Shown here: positions 1,152 through 13,134 of the stretch, piece by piece
How positions within the stretch are numbered: position 1 is the stretch's first letter
How the letters are laid out: each line of letters starts with the position of its first letter
Source: a virus
Taxonomy: Duplodnaviria; Heunggongvirae; Uroviricota; Caudoviricetes
Length of the DNA: 13,134 bases
Virus record (IMG/VR): IMGVR_UViG_3300011337_000358
Direction: 5' to 3' (one strand)
Program-made: the position numbers and the translations under genes
The notes under the pieces: generated by a model
What the model saw: only the letters and a program-made list of their open reading frames with translations
Told to the model about the DNA's origin: nothing
Databases searched by the model: none

Positions 1152-1955
1152 ATGGATCATTATGTAACTTTAGGGGTAAACAAAAATGCTACCCCGGACG
1201 ATATTAAAAAAGCATATCGCAAACTGGCAAGTAAACATCATCCCGATAAAGGGGGCGATACCGCAACGTTTCAACAAATTGAAGAAGCATATCGTATTCT
1301 CAGTGATCCACAACAACGTCAACAATATGACAATCCAATGCCACAAGGCTTTGGGCAGAATTTTAATTTTAACGGTGGACCTGATATCTTCCAAGACTTT
1401 ATGAGTCAGGTGTTTAGGCAACAACATCAGCAACATCAACACCGCCAGAGACAAAAACCAGTATTTAGAACCACAGTAACTGTAACACTTGAACAGTCAT
1501 ACAAAGGTGAAGAGCAAGTTATCAGACTACAAACACCTACACTTACACATGCGGCAAATATTCAAACTCCGAAAGGGGTTCATAATGGTGACCAAGTTAA
1601 ATTTGATAATATCATACAAGAGGCAAGTCTTATTGTAGAGTTTAAAATTATACCACATTTAAAATATGATAGAAATGGAAATGACTTGTTATCAAATCAC
1701 CCGATATCAATATTAGATTTAATTACAGGGACATCGTTTGAGTTTACTACTATTTCAGGTAAAACATTTGAAGTTACAGTTAAACCTAAAACGCAACCAT
1801 TTATACAATTAAAAATTACAGGACAAGGTATGCCCATACATGGAACCAATCAGTTTGGCGACCAAATAATCTTGTTAAAACCCTATATACCTGATATAAT
1901 TGACGAATCAATTATTAACAGCATTCTACAATCTAAAAATAAGGAATCAATATGA
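1152..1955 (+). CDS. dnaJ: DnaJ/CbpA-like class II J-domain co-chaperone, 267 aa
   Basis: J-domain DHYVTLGV...[19 protein letters not shown] (HPD motif), a G/F-rich linker ([11 protein letters not shown]), no CxxCxGxG zinc fingers, and a DnaJ_C-like C-terminus (RNGNDL...ISILDLITG...GQGMP...GDQII). Confidence 0.9.
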
Positions 1956-4213
1956 CAAATTCTCCGGAAATAGAAAACATTATCGAACAATCGATTGAGT
2001 ATGCCAAACAACGTAAACATCAATATGTTACAGTTGAACACTTACTTCTTGCATTAATTAATCATCCATCTTTTACTAAATGCGTAGTTGGCTTTGGCAT
2101 AGATGTTGAGTCAATGTCACACGAAATCACTGGTTATTTAGATAGCTTACACGCTATTGTTTCTACTGAAACTGAAGTAGTTCCACGCAAAACAAGTAGT
2201 TTAGAACGGGTTATGAATCGTTCTGTCACTCAGGTTCTATTCACCGGACGTAGACAAGTTACTACTATTGATTTGTATCTAAGTATTGCAAGTGAAGGTA
2301 ACAGTCACGCACATTATTTCATGCTCAAATACGGTATGCAAAAGAATGAGTTTGTTGCGTACTGGCAAAAACACTATAAGAATGAAGGCGCCGGCAATCT
2401 TACTGAAAATCAAGCAGATGAAATTCTTGAAGAATATACTATTAACCTAAGTGAACTTGCTAGTCAAGGTAAACTTGAACCATTGATTGGTCGTGCAAAA
2501 GAACTTGATGATATTATCAATGTGCTTGCTAAACGATTTAAATCAAATGTATTGATGGTGGGTGATCCGGGTGTAGGTAAAACTGCTATTGCCGAAGGTC
2601 TTGCACAAATGATGCACGACAAACAAGTGCCTGAATTTTTAGAAGGTCATCAACTATATTCATTAGAAGTTGGTTCATTACTTGCCGGCAGCAAATATCG
2701 CGGGGACTTTGAAGAAAAAGTCAAAGCCATTATCGATGCATTGAATACTAAAAAGAAAGCTATTTTATTCATTGACGAAGCACATACTATGCAAGGTGCA
2801 GGTTCAAGCTCCAATGGTAGTGTTGACTTTGCTAATATGATTACACCAGCAATTACTAAAGGCACATTGAAAGTTATTGCTAGTACTACTTGGGAAGAAT
2901 ACTACGAACGTTTTGAGAAGGATCGTGCATTAATGCGTAGATTCTATCGTGTCTCAATTGATGAACCAAGCAACGAATCTACTGTTCGAATTCTTTCTGG
3001 ACTAAGCACACGATTGAATGACTTTCATAGTGTTGAAATTCAAGAAGATGCAATTAAAGCATCAGTTGAAATGTCAACACGATACATTCACGACCGAAAA
3101 AATCCTGATAAAAGTATTGACTTATTGGATGCGGCTTGTGCTAAACAACGTGTTGCAGGTAATAAAGGTGCACATATTACTAAAGACTTAGTGTTTGACC
3201 AAGTAGAGAAGTTTACGGGAGTTCCTGCAGATAAGATGAAGGGTGATAATTTTGACCTTATCAATAACCTTGAGATTAATATCAAAGGTAAATTATATGG
3301 TCAAGATGAAACCGTTCAGCAAGTGTTAGAACGTATCTATGTTAACTTTGCTGGTATCGGTAATGATACTAAACCAACAGGTAGTTTCTTGTTTTTAGGC
3401 CCAACAGGTACAGGTAAAACAGAATTGGCTAAGTTGTTAAGTAAGAACCTTGACATGCCATTGCTCAAATATGATATGAGTGAATACGGAGAAAAACATT
3501 CAGTATCTAGTTTGATCGGTCCGCCCCCTGGTTATGTTGGCTTCGGTGACAGTCAAGTCGGTGGTGGCCGTTTAATCAACGACTTAAGTAAGAACCCACA
3601 TGCTATCATGTTGTTTGATGAAGTTGAAAAAGCACACCCTGATATATTTAACATCTTCTTACAGATGTTAGACGAAGGTACTATTACAGGAAGTAATGGT
3701 AAGAAGGTTAACTGTAAGAATGCTATTATCATTATGACTAGTAACTTAGGTAGTGCCGATGGTGAGCGCAATAACATTGGTTTTGGATCACAAGACAAGC
3801 AAGGAGAAGATGATAAAGCATTGAAAGAATTCTTTAAGCCAGAATTCAGAAATCGTGTTGATTTGATTTGCAAGTTTAACAAACTTGATAGCTTGGCTAT
3901 TAAGAAAATTGTTATTAAGTTTACTGAAGATTTGAAAAAATCATTAATTGAAAAACACAATATCAATTTAGTATTGACAGAACCAGTAGTTGAGTATCTA
4001 GCTGAACAAGGGTATGACAAGAAAATGGGTGCTAGACCACTAGCACGTAAGATTGACGAATTGATTCGTGTACCACTGAGTAAAAAAGTATTGTTTGAAC
4101 GCATTAAAAATGCTACTATTACTGCCAACATTGTTGGTGACACTATTGATTTTGCAGTGACACACAAATTAACAGCTAAGGTGAATGACGATGGCATTAT
4201 TGAGGTCAGTTGA
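1952..4213 (+). CDS. clpA: ATP-dependent Clp protease ATP-binding subunit ClpA, 753 aa
   Basis: Clp N-domain ([13 protein letters not shown]). D1: Walker A GDPGVGKT, pore loop GSKYRGDFE, Walker B IDEAH. D2: Walker [13 protein letters not shown] loop, Walker B FDEVEK. ClpP-docking IGF loop (NNIGFGS). No ClpB coiled-coil M domain. SD AAGGA at 1941-1945; ATGA overlap with dnaJ. Confidence 0.93.
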
Positions 4214-5497: not shown

Positions 5498-6781
5498 ATG
5501 AAACAAATTGTCATTATGCCGGGAGGCTTTCATCCATTTCATGCAGGGCACGCCGCACTATATCAAAGTGCAGTGAAAGCATTTCCGAGTGCAGAAGTAT
5601 ATGTTGCCGCTACCAATGACACAAAAACAAGACCTTTCCCCTTTAATATCAAAGAAAAACTAGCAAAACTTGCTGGCGTAGCTCCTGGACATTTTGTACA
5701 AGTTAAAAGTCCTTTTAAAGCAGAAGAAATCACAAGTCAATATAATCCAGAAGAAGATGTATTAATTTTTGTGCGTAGTGAAAAAGATAGAACAGAACAA
5801 CCTAAACCAGGTGGCACAAAGAAAGATGGTACACCTGCTTACTTTCAACCATGGACCGGTAAGAATTTACAGCCATTCAGTAAACATGCTTACATTGCTT
5901 ACTTACCAACTGTAGAGTTTGGACCTGGAATTCAGAGTGCGACTGAGATTCGCAACATGTGGCCTAAACTAAACGATAAGCGCAAGACTGCATTGGTTAT
6001 GAGTTTATATCCGATAACACAGACAAATCCTAAACTTGCCGCTAACGTTGTTAAGATGTTAGATATAGGCATGGGTGAACAACAAGGTGTGGCGGAGGAT
6101 AAAGAATCCGATCCAGTCACAAGTGCTGTATTAAATTTCTATAAGCCAGTAATAAATGATATCCACAAAGAAAAACTACCAGACTATGTTGACCAAGCTC
6201 GTGGATTGTTACAGAAAACAAATGATCCTGATATTCGTAGTAAATTAGTTGATATCTTTAAAAAGGGTAAAGAAAATCCATATATTCAAGGTGGCATTGT
6301 TACTACCGTTGGTGCAGTATTAGCCGGTGGTATATTAACTACAGCACAGAAGATGGGACTAAGCCCTGCACAAACTAACTTAGCATTACAAGCAATATTG
6401 AATACAGTTATTCCTACAGTTGTTTCACGTATCAATGGTAAAAACTGGAGTGATACAATTAAGTATACATTAGCAAGTGCAGGTATAGGTACAGGTATTG
6501 CCGGCGCAAGTTTAGTAGAAAACGATCCTTGGGGAGATCAAGGTAACTTTGCAGGTGATCGACACGTTGATATTGGTGGAATTTTTACTAGACCTAAATT
6601 AGGTGTAGGTGATATGGTTAAAGTAAATGCAGGTCATTTCAAAGGCATCGGAGAGATATCAGAAATTAAAGGTGACCGTGCAGAAGTTTGGATGGACAGC
6701 TATGCTAAATCCTTCATGTTTGATTTATCTGACCTAGTAAAGTATATACCCGAATCCATAGATTACTTAGAAGAAAAATAA
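5498..6781 (+). CDS. HxGH-superfamily cytidylyltransferase-like protein fused to extra C-terminal modules, 427 aa
   Basis: N-terminal PGGFHPFHAGH (HxGH) and SATEIR (SxT/SxxR) motifs. Then QQGVAE, a 141-aa hydrophobic module ending in LVE, and a KOW-like module. Confidence 0.8.
   Translation: MKQIVIMPGGFHPFHAGHAALYQSAVKAFPSAEVYVAATNDTKTRPFPFNIKEKLAKLAGVAPGHFVQVKSPFKAEEITSQYNPEEDVLIFVRSEKDRTEQPKPGGTKKDGTPAYFQPWTGKNLQPFSKHAYIAYLPTVEFGPGIQSATEIRNMWPKLNDKRKTALVMSLYPITQTNPKLAANVVKMLDIGMGEQQGVAEDKESDPVTSAVLNFYKPVINDIHKEKLPDYVDQARGLLQKTNDPDIRSKLVDIFKKGKENPYIQGGIVTTVGAVLAGGILTTAQKMGLSPAQTNLALQAILNTVIPTVVSRINGKNWSDTIKYTLASAGIGTGIAGASLVENDPWGDQGNFAGDRHVDIGGIFTRPKLGVGDMVKVNAGHFKGIGEISEIKGDRAEVWMDSYAKSFMFDLSDLVKYIPESIDYLEEK
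6083..6099 (+). repeat. QGVAE repeat copy 1 (CAAGGTGTGGCGGAGGA)
   Basis: 15/17 match to CAAGGTGTGGCGGAAGG with the first 14 nt identical. In frame, at the end of the cytidylyltransferase domain. Confidence 0.9.
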
Positions 6782-9457: not shown

Positions 9458-10236
9458 TGCGTTTTACAGAAATATCAGAATCTACAACATCAGGCTCAGT
9501 ATCTACTGTAGCAATGCCACTAGGCAAAACTCAAACACGTACTCAAGTATCTGGTTTAGAACCCGTGAAAAAAGTAATGGGCGGCACTGCTAAGAAAAAA
9601 GGTCCATATGGAAATAGTCTTACTGAAGGTGCTATGAAGCAACTTTCAATGGATCTTAAAGAGTTAAAAGACGAAGAATTCAAAAAGAAATATAATATGA
9701 CTAAGCAGGAAGCCCGTACTGAATTATCTGCAAAGCCTGAACCCATCAAAGAAGCAGAACTATCTGAAGATGATATCATATTAGTTCCAGGACAGGGACG
9801 CAAAATGAAAACTGGATTTGTACCGCATGGTCAAAGTCGTGTAGACCATGAAGTAGAAATGGCACGTAGTGATTTATTCAGTGCGGCAAAGAACGCTAAA
9901 CAAGTATATGAAATGATTCATAGTGTATCTGAAGATGAGGGTCTTGAGGGCTGGGTACAAGAAAAGATTATCAAAGCCAACGACTACCTAAATACAGTAC
10001 GTGAATACTTAGAAGGTAAACAAATTCAACAAGAAGCTAGTAGTCTTACATATGAAGGTAAGATTGACTTTGCCAAAAAGATACAAAAGAATGTAGATAA
10101 GAGTAACAAAGCAGTAGTAAAGACTAGAAAAGAAGTTGGTGCAAGAATTGCTGATATTGGTGCAGGCGGCAAAGAACACAATGTTAAAACTGACAAAGCG
10201 TGGGACGATGCACAAAAAGCAAAGAAAGCAAAATAA
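9457..10236 (+). CDS. Probable internal head / prohead-core-like protein, 259 aa
   Basis: Late promoter; charged, helical sequence; N-terminus MRFTEISE; several hydrophobic-X-E junctions (LTE-G, IKE-A, LSE-D, YLE-G, TYE-G). The function is inferred. Confidence 0.6.
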   Translation: MRFTEISESTTSGSVSTVAMPLGKTQTRTQVSGLEPVKKVMGGTAKKKGPYGNSLTEGAMKQLSMDLKELKDEEFKKKYNMTKQEARTELSAKPEPIKEAELSEDDIILVPGQGRKMKTGFVPHGQSRVDHEVEMARSDLFSAAKNAKQVYEMIHSVSEDEGLEGWVQEKIIKANDYLNTVREYLEGKQIQQEASSLTYEGKIDFAKKIQKNVDKSNKAVVKTRKEVGARIADIGAGGKEHNVKTDKAWDDAQKAKKAK

Positions 10237-10237
10237 A

Positions 10238-13134
10238 ATGAGCAATATTCTACAAGGCTTAAACGAAACACAAAAACATGACGGTGTATTCTTGTTAACA
10301 GAATCTCGTACATACAAGTTATGGGAGAGTGCTGGACAAAAGATTAGTGAAGCACAACTAACTGCCGATCAGATTAATCAAATCTTTAAACAAGTTGAAC
10401 AAGGTGCTACTGCCGCAGGTGGTAATCGTACAATGCTCGGTAAAGGTAAAGACGCAGCCGGCGCAGTAAAGCAAGCATATGATGATTTGGTGAGTAAAGC
10501 ACAGAACTCAGGACCTATTAAAGGTGTTGATGCGATGTACGACAAAGCCGCCGAAAAATTAAAACAAGCAACTGGTGGCGATCAGGGTGTAATGAAATAT
10601 GTACAGAAATATCGTGACTTTGCTAAAGAACACCCAGTAGCACAAGGTTTAATATATTCAGCATTAATTGCAGCCGCTGGTATCAGTGGTGCAGGTATTG
10701 GTGGTGCAGCCGCACTAGGTTTGTTTAAGATGGTAGACAAATTGTTACAGGGTGAGAAGTTTAGTACTGCTGTAGGTAAAGGCGTAACTACTGGTGCAAT
10801 GGCTTATGGTGCAAGTAAAGTTGGTGATCTTTTCAAAGGTTCACCGCAAGGCGCACCTACTACTGCTGGATCAGACGCTACCGCAGGTGCGGCACAAGAT
10901 ACATTGTCTGCGACTAGACAAGCAGTGGAAAAAGAAGCTATGGATGCCATTAAGTCTAGAATTGCCAATGGAGAAATAGCACCCGGCGATCAAGGTGCCA
11001 TACGAGATTTGGCATACAAAATGCTAGATGGATCAGGTATGCCGCCGCAGTCTATAGAAACTTCTGTAGAAAAATTAATAACACGATCTATGGGTGATGT
11101 AGGAACTAGCGCAACTAATACAGTGTCCGGCACATTGTCAGGTGTTACCGGAGAACAGATGGCTAGTCATCCTGCATACCAAGCAATGATTCAAAAGTTT
11201 GGCAATACACCCGGCGCTCGTCAGGCGGCTATGGCTGCTGCCAAGTCAGCAATTCTTAAGGGACAAGTCAATGAAAGTATCAATTTATCAGAATCTCAAA
11301 TCTTTCTATTGATAGGTAAGATTGTTGAACGTCAACGTAAACTTGACGAAGGCATCATGGATACACTTAAAGGCGCCGCAGGTAAAGCCGCCGATTGGGC
11401 ACAAACTAAAGGAACTAATTTAACAACTAAAGTTACTGCTGACAAATTATTACAAGCGTGGAAGAAAGCTGGTAGTCCAACAGATAGTTTAGATGTTGCA
11501 AGCATTATTCAAAAAGCTGGTGTACCATCTGATTCAATCAAACAAGTATACACTACAATGCAAATACCTTTTGCAGGTGAAAAAGGTGCAGGTGCGAGTA
11601 CAAAACGTAATATAGATGTTGATCCATCAAGTGTTGCACCAGCCGCTCCAACAAGTACACCCACTGCTTCTGCACCGTCAGCTACAGCAAATGCGCCGGC
11701 GGCAGATGCATCACAGCCTGCTACGGCCGCAACTGGCTCTTTAGCACAAGCACAAGAACTCATTGCAAAATTAGATCCAGAAACTAAAACAAAACTTATA
11801 TCAACATTGAAACAAGAGTTGAGTGTAGCTGAAAGTCGAATCAATGAATTATCTAATGAAAAATTAGGACAATACAAAAAAGCCGCAAGTGCTGACGCTA
11901 CTGCCGCTGACAAAGCAGGTGACTATAAGCGTGGTGATAAACGTTTCAGTGGTATTGTTCGTGCAACTAACAAACAGTTTGCTAATGATACTAAAAAACA
12001 TGGTCAGCAAGGTGTGGCGGAAGGCTTAGAGCAATCATTATCGTCAATGGTAAGACAAGATCAGACTGAGCGGAATGAGTATGCAACCTTTGTAAAATCA
12101 CAAGCAGGTGGTGATTGGTCCAAAGGGGCTAAAATGTATGCTCAACTCAAAAAAAGACCCATCGATGATATATTTGGTGATGCAATAAGATTAAACCAGT
12201 TTATGAAAATGAAGTTTGATTTTGATAAATTTACCAATGAAGATTGGGACAATTATTGGTTGTTAGCACAGCATTGTGATAATAATCGTGACTTTCAAAA
12301 GAATGCTTTATCAATAATTAAAAAATATCAAGGTACAGATCATTCGCACTACAAATATCTATACGATAGAATCAGTATGGGTCTAACTGGTAAACAGAAA
12401 TACGGAACACAGAATATTAAAGAGCATGGCGTGGCAGAAGGCTTCCCTCATGATGTTGACCATATGCCGGGTCCTGTGATTCGCAATGCTGATATGACTA
12501 CAGATAATGTCAAGACCAAAGACAAAGCAGAATGGGACAGAGCCACTGATAGCATCAACGCACGGGTGTTTGATGATATGAGTGAATTTCGCACTGACAA
12601 CAACGGTGAAACAGTTGTCGGTGATAGCGCAGTTTGGGCCAAGTGGGACAATGCTACACAAACAGGTTGGTTCAATGCCAAAGGTCGCCCATTAAAGCCT
12701 TGGCCTGTTAAAGAGCAAGGTGTGGCGGAAGGTGATGGGCCAAGATATATTGATAACATAATGAACCAGTATAAGGCAGGCTTGCCTGGCCAAAACCCGG
12801 CGGCCTTATCTAAACCAACTAGAGCAGTTGATGCCAGAGGTCGCACACAAGAACAATGGGCACAATTAGTTAGGAGCAAGTTTCCGGGTGCTAAAATTAC
12901 ACAGGCTAAAATGATTGACGGGCCTATGCAAGCAACCTTACCTGATGGTAGAAAACTTGGATGGAAAAAAGTTGAACAAATTGATGAAATTATTGATCCT
13001 AGCACAAAGATGGCATGGGCATTACGCCACATCGCCGGGTTCCTTACTAGATTATTTCCTTACGCAGTGGGCGCCGGAACTTTGTGGGCAGCCAGTGGAC
13101 TGTTGGCCCCACTAGTGGCTGCATCCGGTGGAGT
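10238..13134 (+). CDS. Large modular polyprotein, probable internal head protein (at least 965 aa, 3'-truncated, not in ORF track)
   Basis: I translated it by hand from ATG 10238 (after TAA 10234-10236) and found no stop to the window end. It begins MSNILQGLNE and contains three in-frame GVAEG repeats, a DUF6624-like module, an A/P/T linker and hydrophobic segments. Confidence 0.88.
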   Translation, partial: MSNILQGLNETQKHDGVFLLTESRTYKLWESAGQKISEAQLTADQINQIFKQVEQGATAAGGNRTMLGKGKDAAGAVKQAYDDLVSKAQNSGPIKGVDAMYDKAAEKLKQATGGDQGVMKYVQKYRDFAKEHPVAQGLIYSALIAAAGISGAGIGGAAALGLFKMVDKLLQGEKFSTAVGKGVTTGAMAYGASKVGDLFKGSPQGAPTTAGSDATAGAAQDTLSATRQAVEKEAMDAIKSRIANGEIAPGDQGAIRDLAYKMLDGSGMPPQSIETSVEKLITRSMGDVGTSATNTVSGTLSGVTGEQMASHPAYQAMIQKFGNTPGARQAAMAAAKSAILKGQVNESINLSESQIFLLIGKIVERQRKLDEGIMDTLKGAAGKAADWAQTKGTNLTTKVTADKLLQAWKKAGSPTDSLDVASIIQKAGVPSDSIKQVYTTMQIPFAGEKGAGASTKRNIDVDPSSVAPAAPTSTPTASAPSATANAPAADASQPATAATGSLAQAQELIAKLDPETKTKLISTLKQELSVAESRINELSNEKLGQYKKAASADATAADKAGDYKRGDKRFSGIVRATNKQFANDTKKHGQQGVAEGLEQSLSSMVRQDQTERNEYATFVKSQAGGDWSKGAKMYAQLKKRPIDDIFGDAIRLNQFMKMKFDFDKFTNEDWDNYWLLAQHCDNNRDFQKNALSIIKKYQGTDHSHYKYLYDRISMGLTGKQKYGTQNIKEHGVAEGFPHDVDHMPGPVIRNADMTTDNVKTKDKAEWDRATDSINARVFDDMSEFRTDNNGETVVGDSAVWAKWDNATQTGWFNAKGRPLKPWPVKEQGVAEGDGPRYIDNIMNQYKAGLPGQNPAALSKPTRAVDARGRTQEQWAQLVRSKFPGAKITQAKMIDGPMQATLPDGRKLGWKKVEQIDEIIDPSTKMAWALRHIAGFLTRLFPYAVGAGTLWAASGLLAPLVAASGG
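12008..12024 (+). repeat. QGVAEG repeat copy 2 (CAAGGTGTGGCGGAAGG)
   Basis: 17/17 identical to copy 4; in frame. Confidence 0.95.
12026..12424 (+). other. DUF6624-like domain cassette inside the polyprotein
   Basis: MVRQDQTER...WLLAQHCDNNRDFQKNAL...YKYLYDRISM...KQKYGTQ matches the recalled DUF6624 pattern (M...DQ..R...WLL.QHAD....FQ...L...YAYL.DR......Q.YGTQ). It is bounded by repeat copies 2 and 3. Confidence 0.7.
12417..12441 (+). repeat. GVAEG repeat copy 3, degenerate (TTAAAGAGCATGGCGTGGCAGAAGG)
   Basis: 14/17 match in the core (12425-12441). It shares the upstream TTAAAGAGCA with copy 4 and encodes IKEHGVAEG. Confidence 0.88.
12708..12732 (+). repeat. QGVAEG repeat copy 4 (TTAAAGAGCAAGGTGTGGCGGAAGG)
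   Basis: 17/17 core at 12716-12732; encodes VKEQGVAEG; in frame. Confidence 0.95.

Follow-up and report, generated by a model that had tools for sequence, protein, structure and literature searches.

A codon-conserved GVAEG repeat as a probable joint between exchangeable modules in predicted capsid-targeted polyproteins of T4-related aquatic jumbo phages

Why should a short peptide that recurs in a phage protein be written, copy after copy, with the same synonymous codons, and with codons that are rare in the genome around it? This question is raised by a 13,134-nucleotide stretch of tailed-phage DNA (hereafter referred to as the window), which corresponds to bases 14024-27157 of the 78,317-bp IMG/VR virus record IMGVR_UViG_3300011337_000358 (37% GC; judged to be 22% complete), and in which a DNA block encoding the peptide GVAEG recurs within a long open reading frame (ORF) starting at position 10238. 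Considerations detailed below make it probable that GVAEG joins the modules of a cassette system operating in capsid-targeted polyproteins of T4-related aquatic jumbo phages. Two demands would meet in such a joint. Its frame and peptide quite likely serve proteolytic processing, and its frozen codons seem best explained, judging from the position of recombination breakpoints, if the block provides the sole homology for the in-frame exchange of otherwise unrelated modules.

Exact or near copies of GGYGTGGCRGAAGG are present at 12011, 12428 and 12719, all of them in frame in the ORF starting at 10238, and a fourth copy with two mismatches is found at 6086, where it reads RQGVAED within the ORF 5498-6781. 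The initial annotation had placed four copies between 12005 and 12732; four copies indeed exist in the window, but this range holds three of them, and the fourth must be the one at 6086. All four junctions lie on the plus strand. The slightly decayed junction J0 (6083-6100) is written CAA GGT GTG GCG GAG GAT (QGVAED); junctions J1 (12005-12025; CAG CAA GGT GTG GCG GAA GGC; QQGVAEG) and J3 (12713-12733; GAG CAA GGT GTG GCG GAA GGT) carry the exact in-frame 14-mer, and junction J2 (12422-12442; GAG CAT GGC GTG GCA GAA GGC) is two synonymous bases off the consensus 14-mer. Position 12427 is a T in the window and an A in the stored record, so that the record has CAA for CAT; the copy that is EH-GVAEG in the window is EQ-GVAEG in the record, the Gln preceding J2 being changed to His. 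The GVAE(G/D) pattern thus occurs four times in the window, each time in frame, compared with 0.11 occurrences expected per shuffled window.

The codons used at these junctions deviate strongly from those of the remainder of the genome. In the 93 ORFs of the 78-kb record, GTG accounts for 10.5% of the Val codons, GCG for 7.0% of the Ala codons and GGC for 18% of the Gly codons. At the window joints, however, Val is encoded by GTG in four out of four copies (p=1.2e-4) and Ala by GCG in three out of four (p=1.3e-3), with GCA at 12434 as the exception. The whole record contains six GVAE joints, the two additional ones being exact copies that lie in minus-strand genes, likewise in the sense frame, and over these six the skew becomes more pronounced (GTG 6/6, p=1.3e-6; GCG 5/6, p=9.5e-6). 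An internal control is provided by the SVAE peptide at 11822-11833 on the plus strand of the same ORF, which is written with the ordinary codons AGT GTA GCT GAA; it is one of eight VAE tripeptides in the record that are not preceded by Gly, none of which uses GTG or GCG (0/8 for each). The codon choices that had been noticed from the letters of the window alone, including those of the SVAE control, were therefore read correctly and stand out against genome-wide Val and Ala usage. They already contradict one explanation of the repeat, namely that selection acts on the peptide alone, as a protease site or linker, and that codon choice is incidental.

To what extent is this pattern a feature of a wider group of phages? 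A scan of IMG/VR for the exact 14-mer found it in at least 120 contigs with GC contents ranging from 30 to 49%. Among the matches listed, nearly all of those at approximately 97 loci with a GC content below 50% are in frame and read (K/E)(Q/E/K)GVAEG; they reside in ORFs of 100-1500 amino acids (aa), often with two to four copies per ORF, and have unrelated flanks. Matches in high-GC contigs, also among those listed, are out of frame and chance-like. The consensus is a block of about 21 nucleotides (nt), RAG-CAA-GGT-GTG-GCG-GAA-GGC, corresponding to (K/E/Q)-Q-G-V-A-E-G. The DNA logo built from 134 unique sites carries information from position -6 to +14 and none outside, and conservation declines gradually at -6..-4 and at +14. 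At these sites, the residue at position -2 varies between K, E and Q, all encoded by codons of the form xAG (the third base is G in 54%), and the last Gly codon is GGC in 78%, GGT in 19%, and GGA or GGG in about 1% each. Within long ORFs, exact 15-mers have the same frame and sense in 108 out of 108 cases; four further copies lie in no long ORF and probably sit at locus edges. The joint is always in frame.

Loci collected through the motif itself are subject to ascertainment bias; to avoid this, 48 loci were retrieved through protein homology to the N-terminal part of the window ORF, which lacks the motif. Even in this motif-blind set, the 37 unique GVAE sites use GTG in 26 cases, against a background of 17% (p=1.6e-12), and GCG in 25 cases, against 7.4% (p=4e-20). 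One-mismatch variants of the block, with the GGC to GGT change excluded, comprise 10 synonymous and 23 non-synonymous changes, for which the mutational opportunity is 12:32; hence, the synonymous positions are about as constrained as the non-synonymous ones. The view expressed in the initial annotation that the DNA itself is conserved beyond the needs of the peptide is borne out by these data, since synonymous positions do not follow background codon usage. Selection on the peptide alone is accordingly highly improbable in our assessment. Such an explanation would account well for the invariable reading frame and for a peptide that suits a T4-type cleavage site, but third positions depart from background at p=1e-12 to 4e-20, and variants show the synonymous to non-synonymous ratio expected from opportunity. 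Moreover, the motif recognized by the T4-type protease is loose (PMC9026906), yet the joint peptide is invariant, and in a single case (L142, ORF starting MRAQEFVAEG) a leader resembling a capsid targeting sequence (CTS) ends in VAE↓G (the arrow marks the putative cut) but is written GTT GCT.

Three other origins of the codon pattern were considered and rejected. Complete relatives of about 350 kb contain just two to three copies each, all in one locus, which speaks against a genome-wide DNA signal such as a chi-like, packaging or modification site. Generic GC-biased conversion is incompatible with the retention of A/T endings by GGT, CAA and GAA at the very sites where GTG, GCG and GGC are fixed. 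Finally, when 596 Gb of genomes from bacteria and archaea were scanned with an 18-mer, this yielded 56 matches, 53 of which are in high-GC genomes and chance-like, a result that argues against a cellular origin. The remaining three matches are on low-GC contigs (L216, L238, L258). L258 is an 8.9-kb contig with three in-frame copies in a metagenome-assembled genome (MAG) of the Bacteroidetes, and L216 is a 14-kb contig in a Bdellovibrio MAG, where the joint is likewise in frame; both are probably phage fragments binned with bacteria, and the binning may hint at hosts. The motif is phage-specific and essentially absent from cellular genomes.

The segments that the joints delimit behave as separate units. 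On the plus strand of the window, a conserved module of about 55 aa (11840-12004), ending in NKQF-x-ND-x-KKH, adjoins J1; sequences 58-77% identical to it are found in unrelated proteins, where their position varies. Between J1 and J2 lies cassette M1 (12026-12421), a 134-aa all-helical domain that AlphaFold2 models with a mean predicted local distance difference test score (pLDDT) of 94.6 as six helices followed by a disordered tail leading into J2. M1 has no Pfam family and no Foldseek match in the PDB, and a wide structural search returned only generic helical similarity of the tetratricopeptide repeat (TPR) type (Z <= 7.1), which is uninformative. J2 and J3 enclose cassette M2 (12443-12712; 92 aa), and the C-terminal region M3 starts at 12734, runs to the last base of the window (13134), and continues past it with a Gly/Ala-rich hydrophobic stretch and two further shuffled modules; these two C-terminal submodules occur in another order and in other genes in L067, L082, L060 and L116.

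When the J1-J3 interval was compared with 1.8 billion representative proteins, 457 matches were obtained, and nearly all of these cover M1 alone or M2 alone. M1-only matches cover the query from residue 2 to 130/140, M2-only matches from 131/137 to 235, and the matching segments can be at any position in proteins of 74-1495 aa. The hundreds of M1 relatives fall into two kinds: some stand alone as proteins of about 150 aa whose start resembles a T4 CTS, and the others are flanked by GVAEG joints. An M2 homologue in P0082 is enclosed by two joints and preceded by a leader that belongs to another gene family, and that in L042 is likewise bounded by joints. Likewise, modules from this genome's other junction genes are found again in other phages, in different orders and genes. 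A related phage has a 1122-aa ORF (L158:6296-9661) in which a leader, two cassettes, the core of the window protein and the GP88-like domain of a 593-aa protein of this genome are joined at GVAE joints; it fuses at joints homologues of what are two separate genes in the phage studied here. The joints therefore separate independently folding and independently distributed modules.

Where exactly does homology between such mosaic genes begin and end? This was assessed by anchoring all junction pairs from different loci on the joint and comparing 90 nt on each side. At a threshold of at least 70% identity, eight pairs are related on both sides of the joint; a further 23 are related only upstream of it and 32 only downstream. 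Identity in these 55 one-sided pairs breaks down at +11..+17 or at -3..-8, i.e., at the edges of the conserved block. L100 and L037, for instance, are 100% identical downstream and 28% identical upstream of the joint, and L100 and L026 are 92% identical upstream and 24% downstream; L095 has its upstream module in common with L061 and its downstream module with L055; and at J1, the window DNA is 70% identical to L168 up to the joint and unrelated beyond it. The difference between L100 and L037 consists of a 165-nt cassette inserted exactly between leader and joint, and the homology of L037 to the 593-aa gene of this genome resumes at the last base of the joint. Related phages hence differ in which modules they have gained, lost or replaced, the breakpoints falling at the block edges, and recombination, one of the causes that had been envisioned when the repeat was first noticed, is the best-supported cause of its conservation.

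A mechanism by which recombination could freeze codons can be envisioned as follows. If the block is the only homology among otherwise unrelated modules, general homologous recombination or annealing of the UvsX type inside it would yield in-frame recombinants. Copies that have drifted would stop exchanging, and those still spreading would remain the same in every codon, which would account for the rare GTG, GCG and GGC codons as well as the xAG codon two places upstream. A gp21-type prohead protease would cut V-A-E↓G and thereby free each module inside the head, from which the modules would be injected together with the DNA. RecA/UvsX-type genes are present in four out of four near-complete relatives checked; they are part of the general T4 machinery and not specific evidence. 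The initial annotation had proposed to look for a co-occurring recombinase or DNA-binding gene; among the neighbors of the junction genes in this genome, no specific DNA-binding or site-specific enzyme was found.

One may ask whether the copies are merely young, having arisen by recent duplication or through one horizontal sweep, so that their synonymous sites had no time to diverge. The stretches at 12417 and 12708 share TTAAAGAGCA, so that J2 and J3 have 10 extra upstream bases in common, as had been observed before, and some module pairs adjoining joints are 90-100% identical. The flanks are, however, unrelated in 29,257 of 29,592 junction pairs, and the block recurs across contigs of differing base composition. 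In junctions whose flanks are 40-80% identical in protein (a set chosen by DNA similarity), 89% of the codons at junction residues are shared, compared with 42-58% at conserved flank residues. The codon skew also persists in the motif-blind loci, and the variants show no synonymous excess. The earlier proposal that the copies stem from recent duplication can, in our view, not be upheld, and recency as the general cause of the identical codons is very improbable.

Another possibility is that a dedicated enzyme, such as a homing-type endonuclease or a site-specific recombinase, recognizes the 18-21-bp block and drives cassette exchange in a manner resembling an in-frame version of integron attC sites. 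The breakpoints at the block would be expected from such a site, and 15 consecutive invariant bases across GC contents of 30 to 49% represent a stronger conservation than generic homology-dependent recombination seems to need; furthermore, T4-type phages are rich in homing endonucleases, one of which is encoded beside the capsid gene in L132. The genes neighboring the junction genes in this genome, however, encode Dps-like, SNase, TctC, superoxide dismutase (SOD), kinase and UvdE proteins, and no integrase or recombinase is among them. Mobility genes are absent from the inserted cassettes, the block lacks dyad symmetry, and the fading of its conservation at both ends leaves it without the sharp boundary of a recognition site. 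We regard this explanation as unlikely. A bolder version of it, in which the joint would be the attachment site of a dedicated cassette-exchange machinery, an "in-frame integron" that reassorts injected effector modules on demand or generates frequent deletion and duplication variants within a single burst, is likewise doubtful.

The codons might also be fixed at the level of RNA or translation, through a ribosome pause at domain boundaries caused by rare codons, a weak two-tier G-quadruplex (GG-TGT-GG-C-GG-AA-GG), or the binding site of an mRNA regulator. GTG and GCG are exactly those codons that create the four GG doublets, and every copy is on the sense strand. Nevertheless, the four window joints share no secondary structure (z-scores of -0.24, +0.39, -0.95 and -1.75), no Rfam match was detected in the window, and a two-tier quadruplex with these loops would be only marginally stable according to a rough estimate that follows the ViennaRNA energy model and is not a computed fold. 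J2, with its GGC and GCA codons, breaks the G pattern. A pause at rare codons would be expected to follow the tRNA pool of each host and not to retain one sequence over many hosts, and the breakpoints are left unexplained by any of these effects. Fixation at the RNA or translation level is therefore quite improbable.

We return to the joint as a site of module exchange that may simultaneously serve the maturation of the phage head. In phage T4, the gp21 protease cleaves after L/I-X-E, and a 10-residue N-terminal CTS loads internal proteins into the head (PMC9026906); the internal proteins of T-even phages have only this type of N-terminal leader in common (PMC3012670). Junction ORFs often start with T4-like leaders (e.g., MRAQEFVAEG or MRAKEFIVET), and this genome's two further junction genes open with the CTS-like sequences MRITEILTE and MNFKELFEG. 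A CTS pattern fits 50% of the junction ORFs, compared with 14% among other ORFs (p=3e-14, odds ratio 6). M1 is the most informative example: in stand-alone M1 proteins, the leader ends in EFITE↓G and is followed by SDESLSS, and in polyproteins this module follows QGVAE↓G in the same register. V-A-E↓G is thus probably a cleavage site of the T4 gp21 type. An S77 protease is encoded by the relatives G001, G003, G005, G007 and G008 (one such ORF of a relative is L137:1444-2076), and a gp23-type capsid gene was found in G001 and G003 when G000-G004 were searched. Given that all ORF-borne 15-mers have the same frame, and that the peptide is in register with the CTS cleavage point, the contention that the DNA is conserved rather than the peptide motif was too strong; peptide and DNA are probably both under constraint.

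A number of observations weigh against the interpretation favored here. With regard to processing, the CTS pattern was drawn up after the leaders had been seen, and the N-terminus of the window ORF itself (MSNILQGLNE) fits it only loosely, with L-x-E at residues 8-10. The 78-kb fragment contains neither a protease nor a capsid gene, albeit at 22% completeness. In two relatives, the capsid propeptide terminates in LKE↓N or LME↓N, not in GVAE↓G; the protease consequently does not need GVAEG, which itself suggests that the invariance of the joint has another cause. With regard to exchange, the perfect core of 15 nt within the 21-nt block is short for recombination of the RecA type, and crossing-over within the block is what we infer from the breakpoints; selection on domain boundaries would likewise put breakpoints near linkers. 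The contigs entering the pair counts are not phylogenetically independent. In an all-against-all BLAST comparison, which is cruder than the DNA-anchored test, the ends of high-scoring segment pairs are enriched at joints only 3.4-fold (16% versus 4.8%).

The gene carrying J1 to J3 is represented in the window by its 5' part (10238-13134, plus strand, according to ORF prediction and the genome record) and extends 975 nt beyond the window end. Its product has 1268 aa when counted from the ATG at 10238, a start that is common to orthologues beginning with MSNIL, and 1302 aa from an upstream ATG at window position 10181; residue coordinates of the long ORF are counted here from the upstream ATG. 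A conserved core with hydrophobic segments is followed by the cassette modules, and the orthologues of this core range from 413 to 1185 aa, with cassettes that differ or are absent. The window differs from the stored record by 12 single bases (50, 314, 325, 2163, 2844, 2909, 6081, 11006, 11028, 11036, 11049 and 12427), of which the four clustered at 11006-11049 alter residues of the long ORF. J0 belongs to a 427-aa gene (5498-6781, plus strand; assigned by Pfam and homology) that encodes a nucleotidyltransferase-like N-terminal domain (Pfam CTP_transf_like at residues 6-93), the junction and a C-terminal module, but no leader. In the 430-residue stop-to-stop frame, the junction Gly is residue 200 (197 from the ATG), and the homology to L017 and L170 sets in directly behind it, at residues 201 and 210; the joint at 6086 hence marks the boundary between the nucleotidyltransferase-like domain and the C-terminal module common to L017 and L170.

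The 78-kb record encodes T4-type replication proteins (a gp44-like clamp loader and a family B polymerase), and a search of the phage GenBank collection returned a single weak match of 153 nt to a Synechococcus phage. In addition to the genes already described, the window encodes a holin-like protein and a phage chaperone pair at 1152-4213, consisting of DnaJ (J domain and C-terminal domain) and a 753-aa ClpA/B-like double AAA+ protein, whose genes overlap by 4 nt. Two adjoining genes are found on the minus strand at record positions 57494-59961 (L131). One encodes the 593-aa protein, in which a conserved leader (about 47 aa) is followed by a decayed joint with three DNA mismatches (GMTEE), a cassette, and then an exact joint that leads into the GP88-like domain (PF17338). 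The other is a 230-aa gene whose start is CTS-like; behind its cassette, an exact joint leads into a DUF6321 module, which PHROGs assigns to eight families at differing offsets. A second recurring boundary, E-G-M-(T/M)-E-E-Q-L-D-E, precedes a Cys-rich "CW.GYH" module in two genes, at residues ~1130-1140 of the long ORF (L130; record ~27590-27620) and in L131, and may be a decayed or alternative joint. The neighbors of the junction genes (record 28122-32061 and 55620-61063) encode Dps/ferritin-like, SNase-like nuclease, TctC-like binding, Fe/Mn SOD, minimal protein kinase, ParB-like and UvdE proteins, and several of these genes sit in a minus-strand block alongside the junction genes. In L132, a 300-kb relative, a gene for an HNH/NUMOD-type homing endonuclease (2594-3376) directly follows the gp23-type capsid gene.

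If our interpretation is correct, a single 21-nt word would keep the frame, allow any modules to be joined and mark the protease cut, and would thus amount to a built-in grammar for protein evolution. The sequence between two joints would provide a rule for finding injected effector or anti-defense modules in uncultured jumbo phages, and the arrangement would offer a naturally occurring template for packaging several foreign proteins in heads of the T4 type. It would also constitute a clean case in which exchangeability, rather than the protein, is what fixes synonymous sites through selection. Full-text literature searches for GVAEG and QGVAEG revealed nothing relevant, and we found no published description of a coding, frame-locked and codon-frozen joint between unrelated genes that probably doubles as a protease site. 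Its components, in contrast, are already known: the CTS and gp21 processing, motif exchange in gp38, shuffling by PeSLs, and polyvalent proteins.

The T4 internal proteins IPI-III and Alt come closest with respect to packaging, as they are diverse cargo that share only a short N-terminal leader ending in hydrophobic-x-Glu (PMC9026906, PMC3012670), vary between phages and are thought to be injected with the DNA; the S77 protease and gp23-type capsid protein of the relatives analyzed here are of the T4 type as well. T4 internal proteins are, however, encoded by separate small genes, whereas the system described here places several modules in one polypeptide, split by an invariant internal site that is fixed at the codon level and whose cleavage is predicted. 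With respect to exchange, the adhesin gp38 of T-even phages is instructive, in which exchanges occur within or near conserved glycine-rich motifs (Tetart et al. 1996, 1998, as cited in PMC3157838), and the same holds for the PeSL regulatory cassettes that mediate shuffling in T4-type phages (PMC2839356, PMC4122927). In these systems, as far as the account of gp38 in the citing article goes, and in ours, short conserved sequences flank hypervariable segments, and exchange occurs in or near them in T4-type phages with a high level of general recombination; short conserved DNA motifs flanking variable segments, with exchange points in or next to the motifs, are precisely what the GVAEG loci display. 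The glycine-rich motifs of gp38, as described there, form the structural core within one gene family, whereas the joint is common to unrelated genes. PeSLs are intergenic elements with a sigma-70-like promoter and a terminator stem-loop; the joint is coding, frame-locked inside ORFs, 15-21 nt in length, has no shared stem-loop and is probably also a protease site.

Polyvalent proteins (Iyer et al. 2017, PMC5512222) resemble the window polyprotein in being long multi-domain polypeptides that are predicted to be packaged and delivered to the host and for which recombinational variability is suspected. They differ in that no conserved linker is described for them (the word "linker" is absent from that text) and in that their processing is ascribed to built-in peptidase domains. 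None of their hallmark domains (MPTase, ArdC, Kinase-PolyVal and others) was detected by Pfam in the window ORF, and a separate neighboring gene has only a weak Kinase-PolyVal match. From an integron-like system, the locus departs by the lack of an integrase or recombinase gene among its neighbors and of dyad symmetry in the block. A further parallel is offered by the polymorphic toxins of bacteria, in which a short conserved peptide/DNA motif (VENN in CdiA, PxxxxDPxGL in Rhs) sits at the position from which recombination exchanges the variable C-terminal domains. These are secreted bacterial toxins with one junction per protein and no involvement of a capsid protease, whereas the GVAEG joints are serial junctions in what are probably proteins of the phage head.

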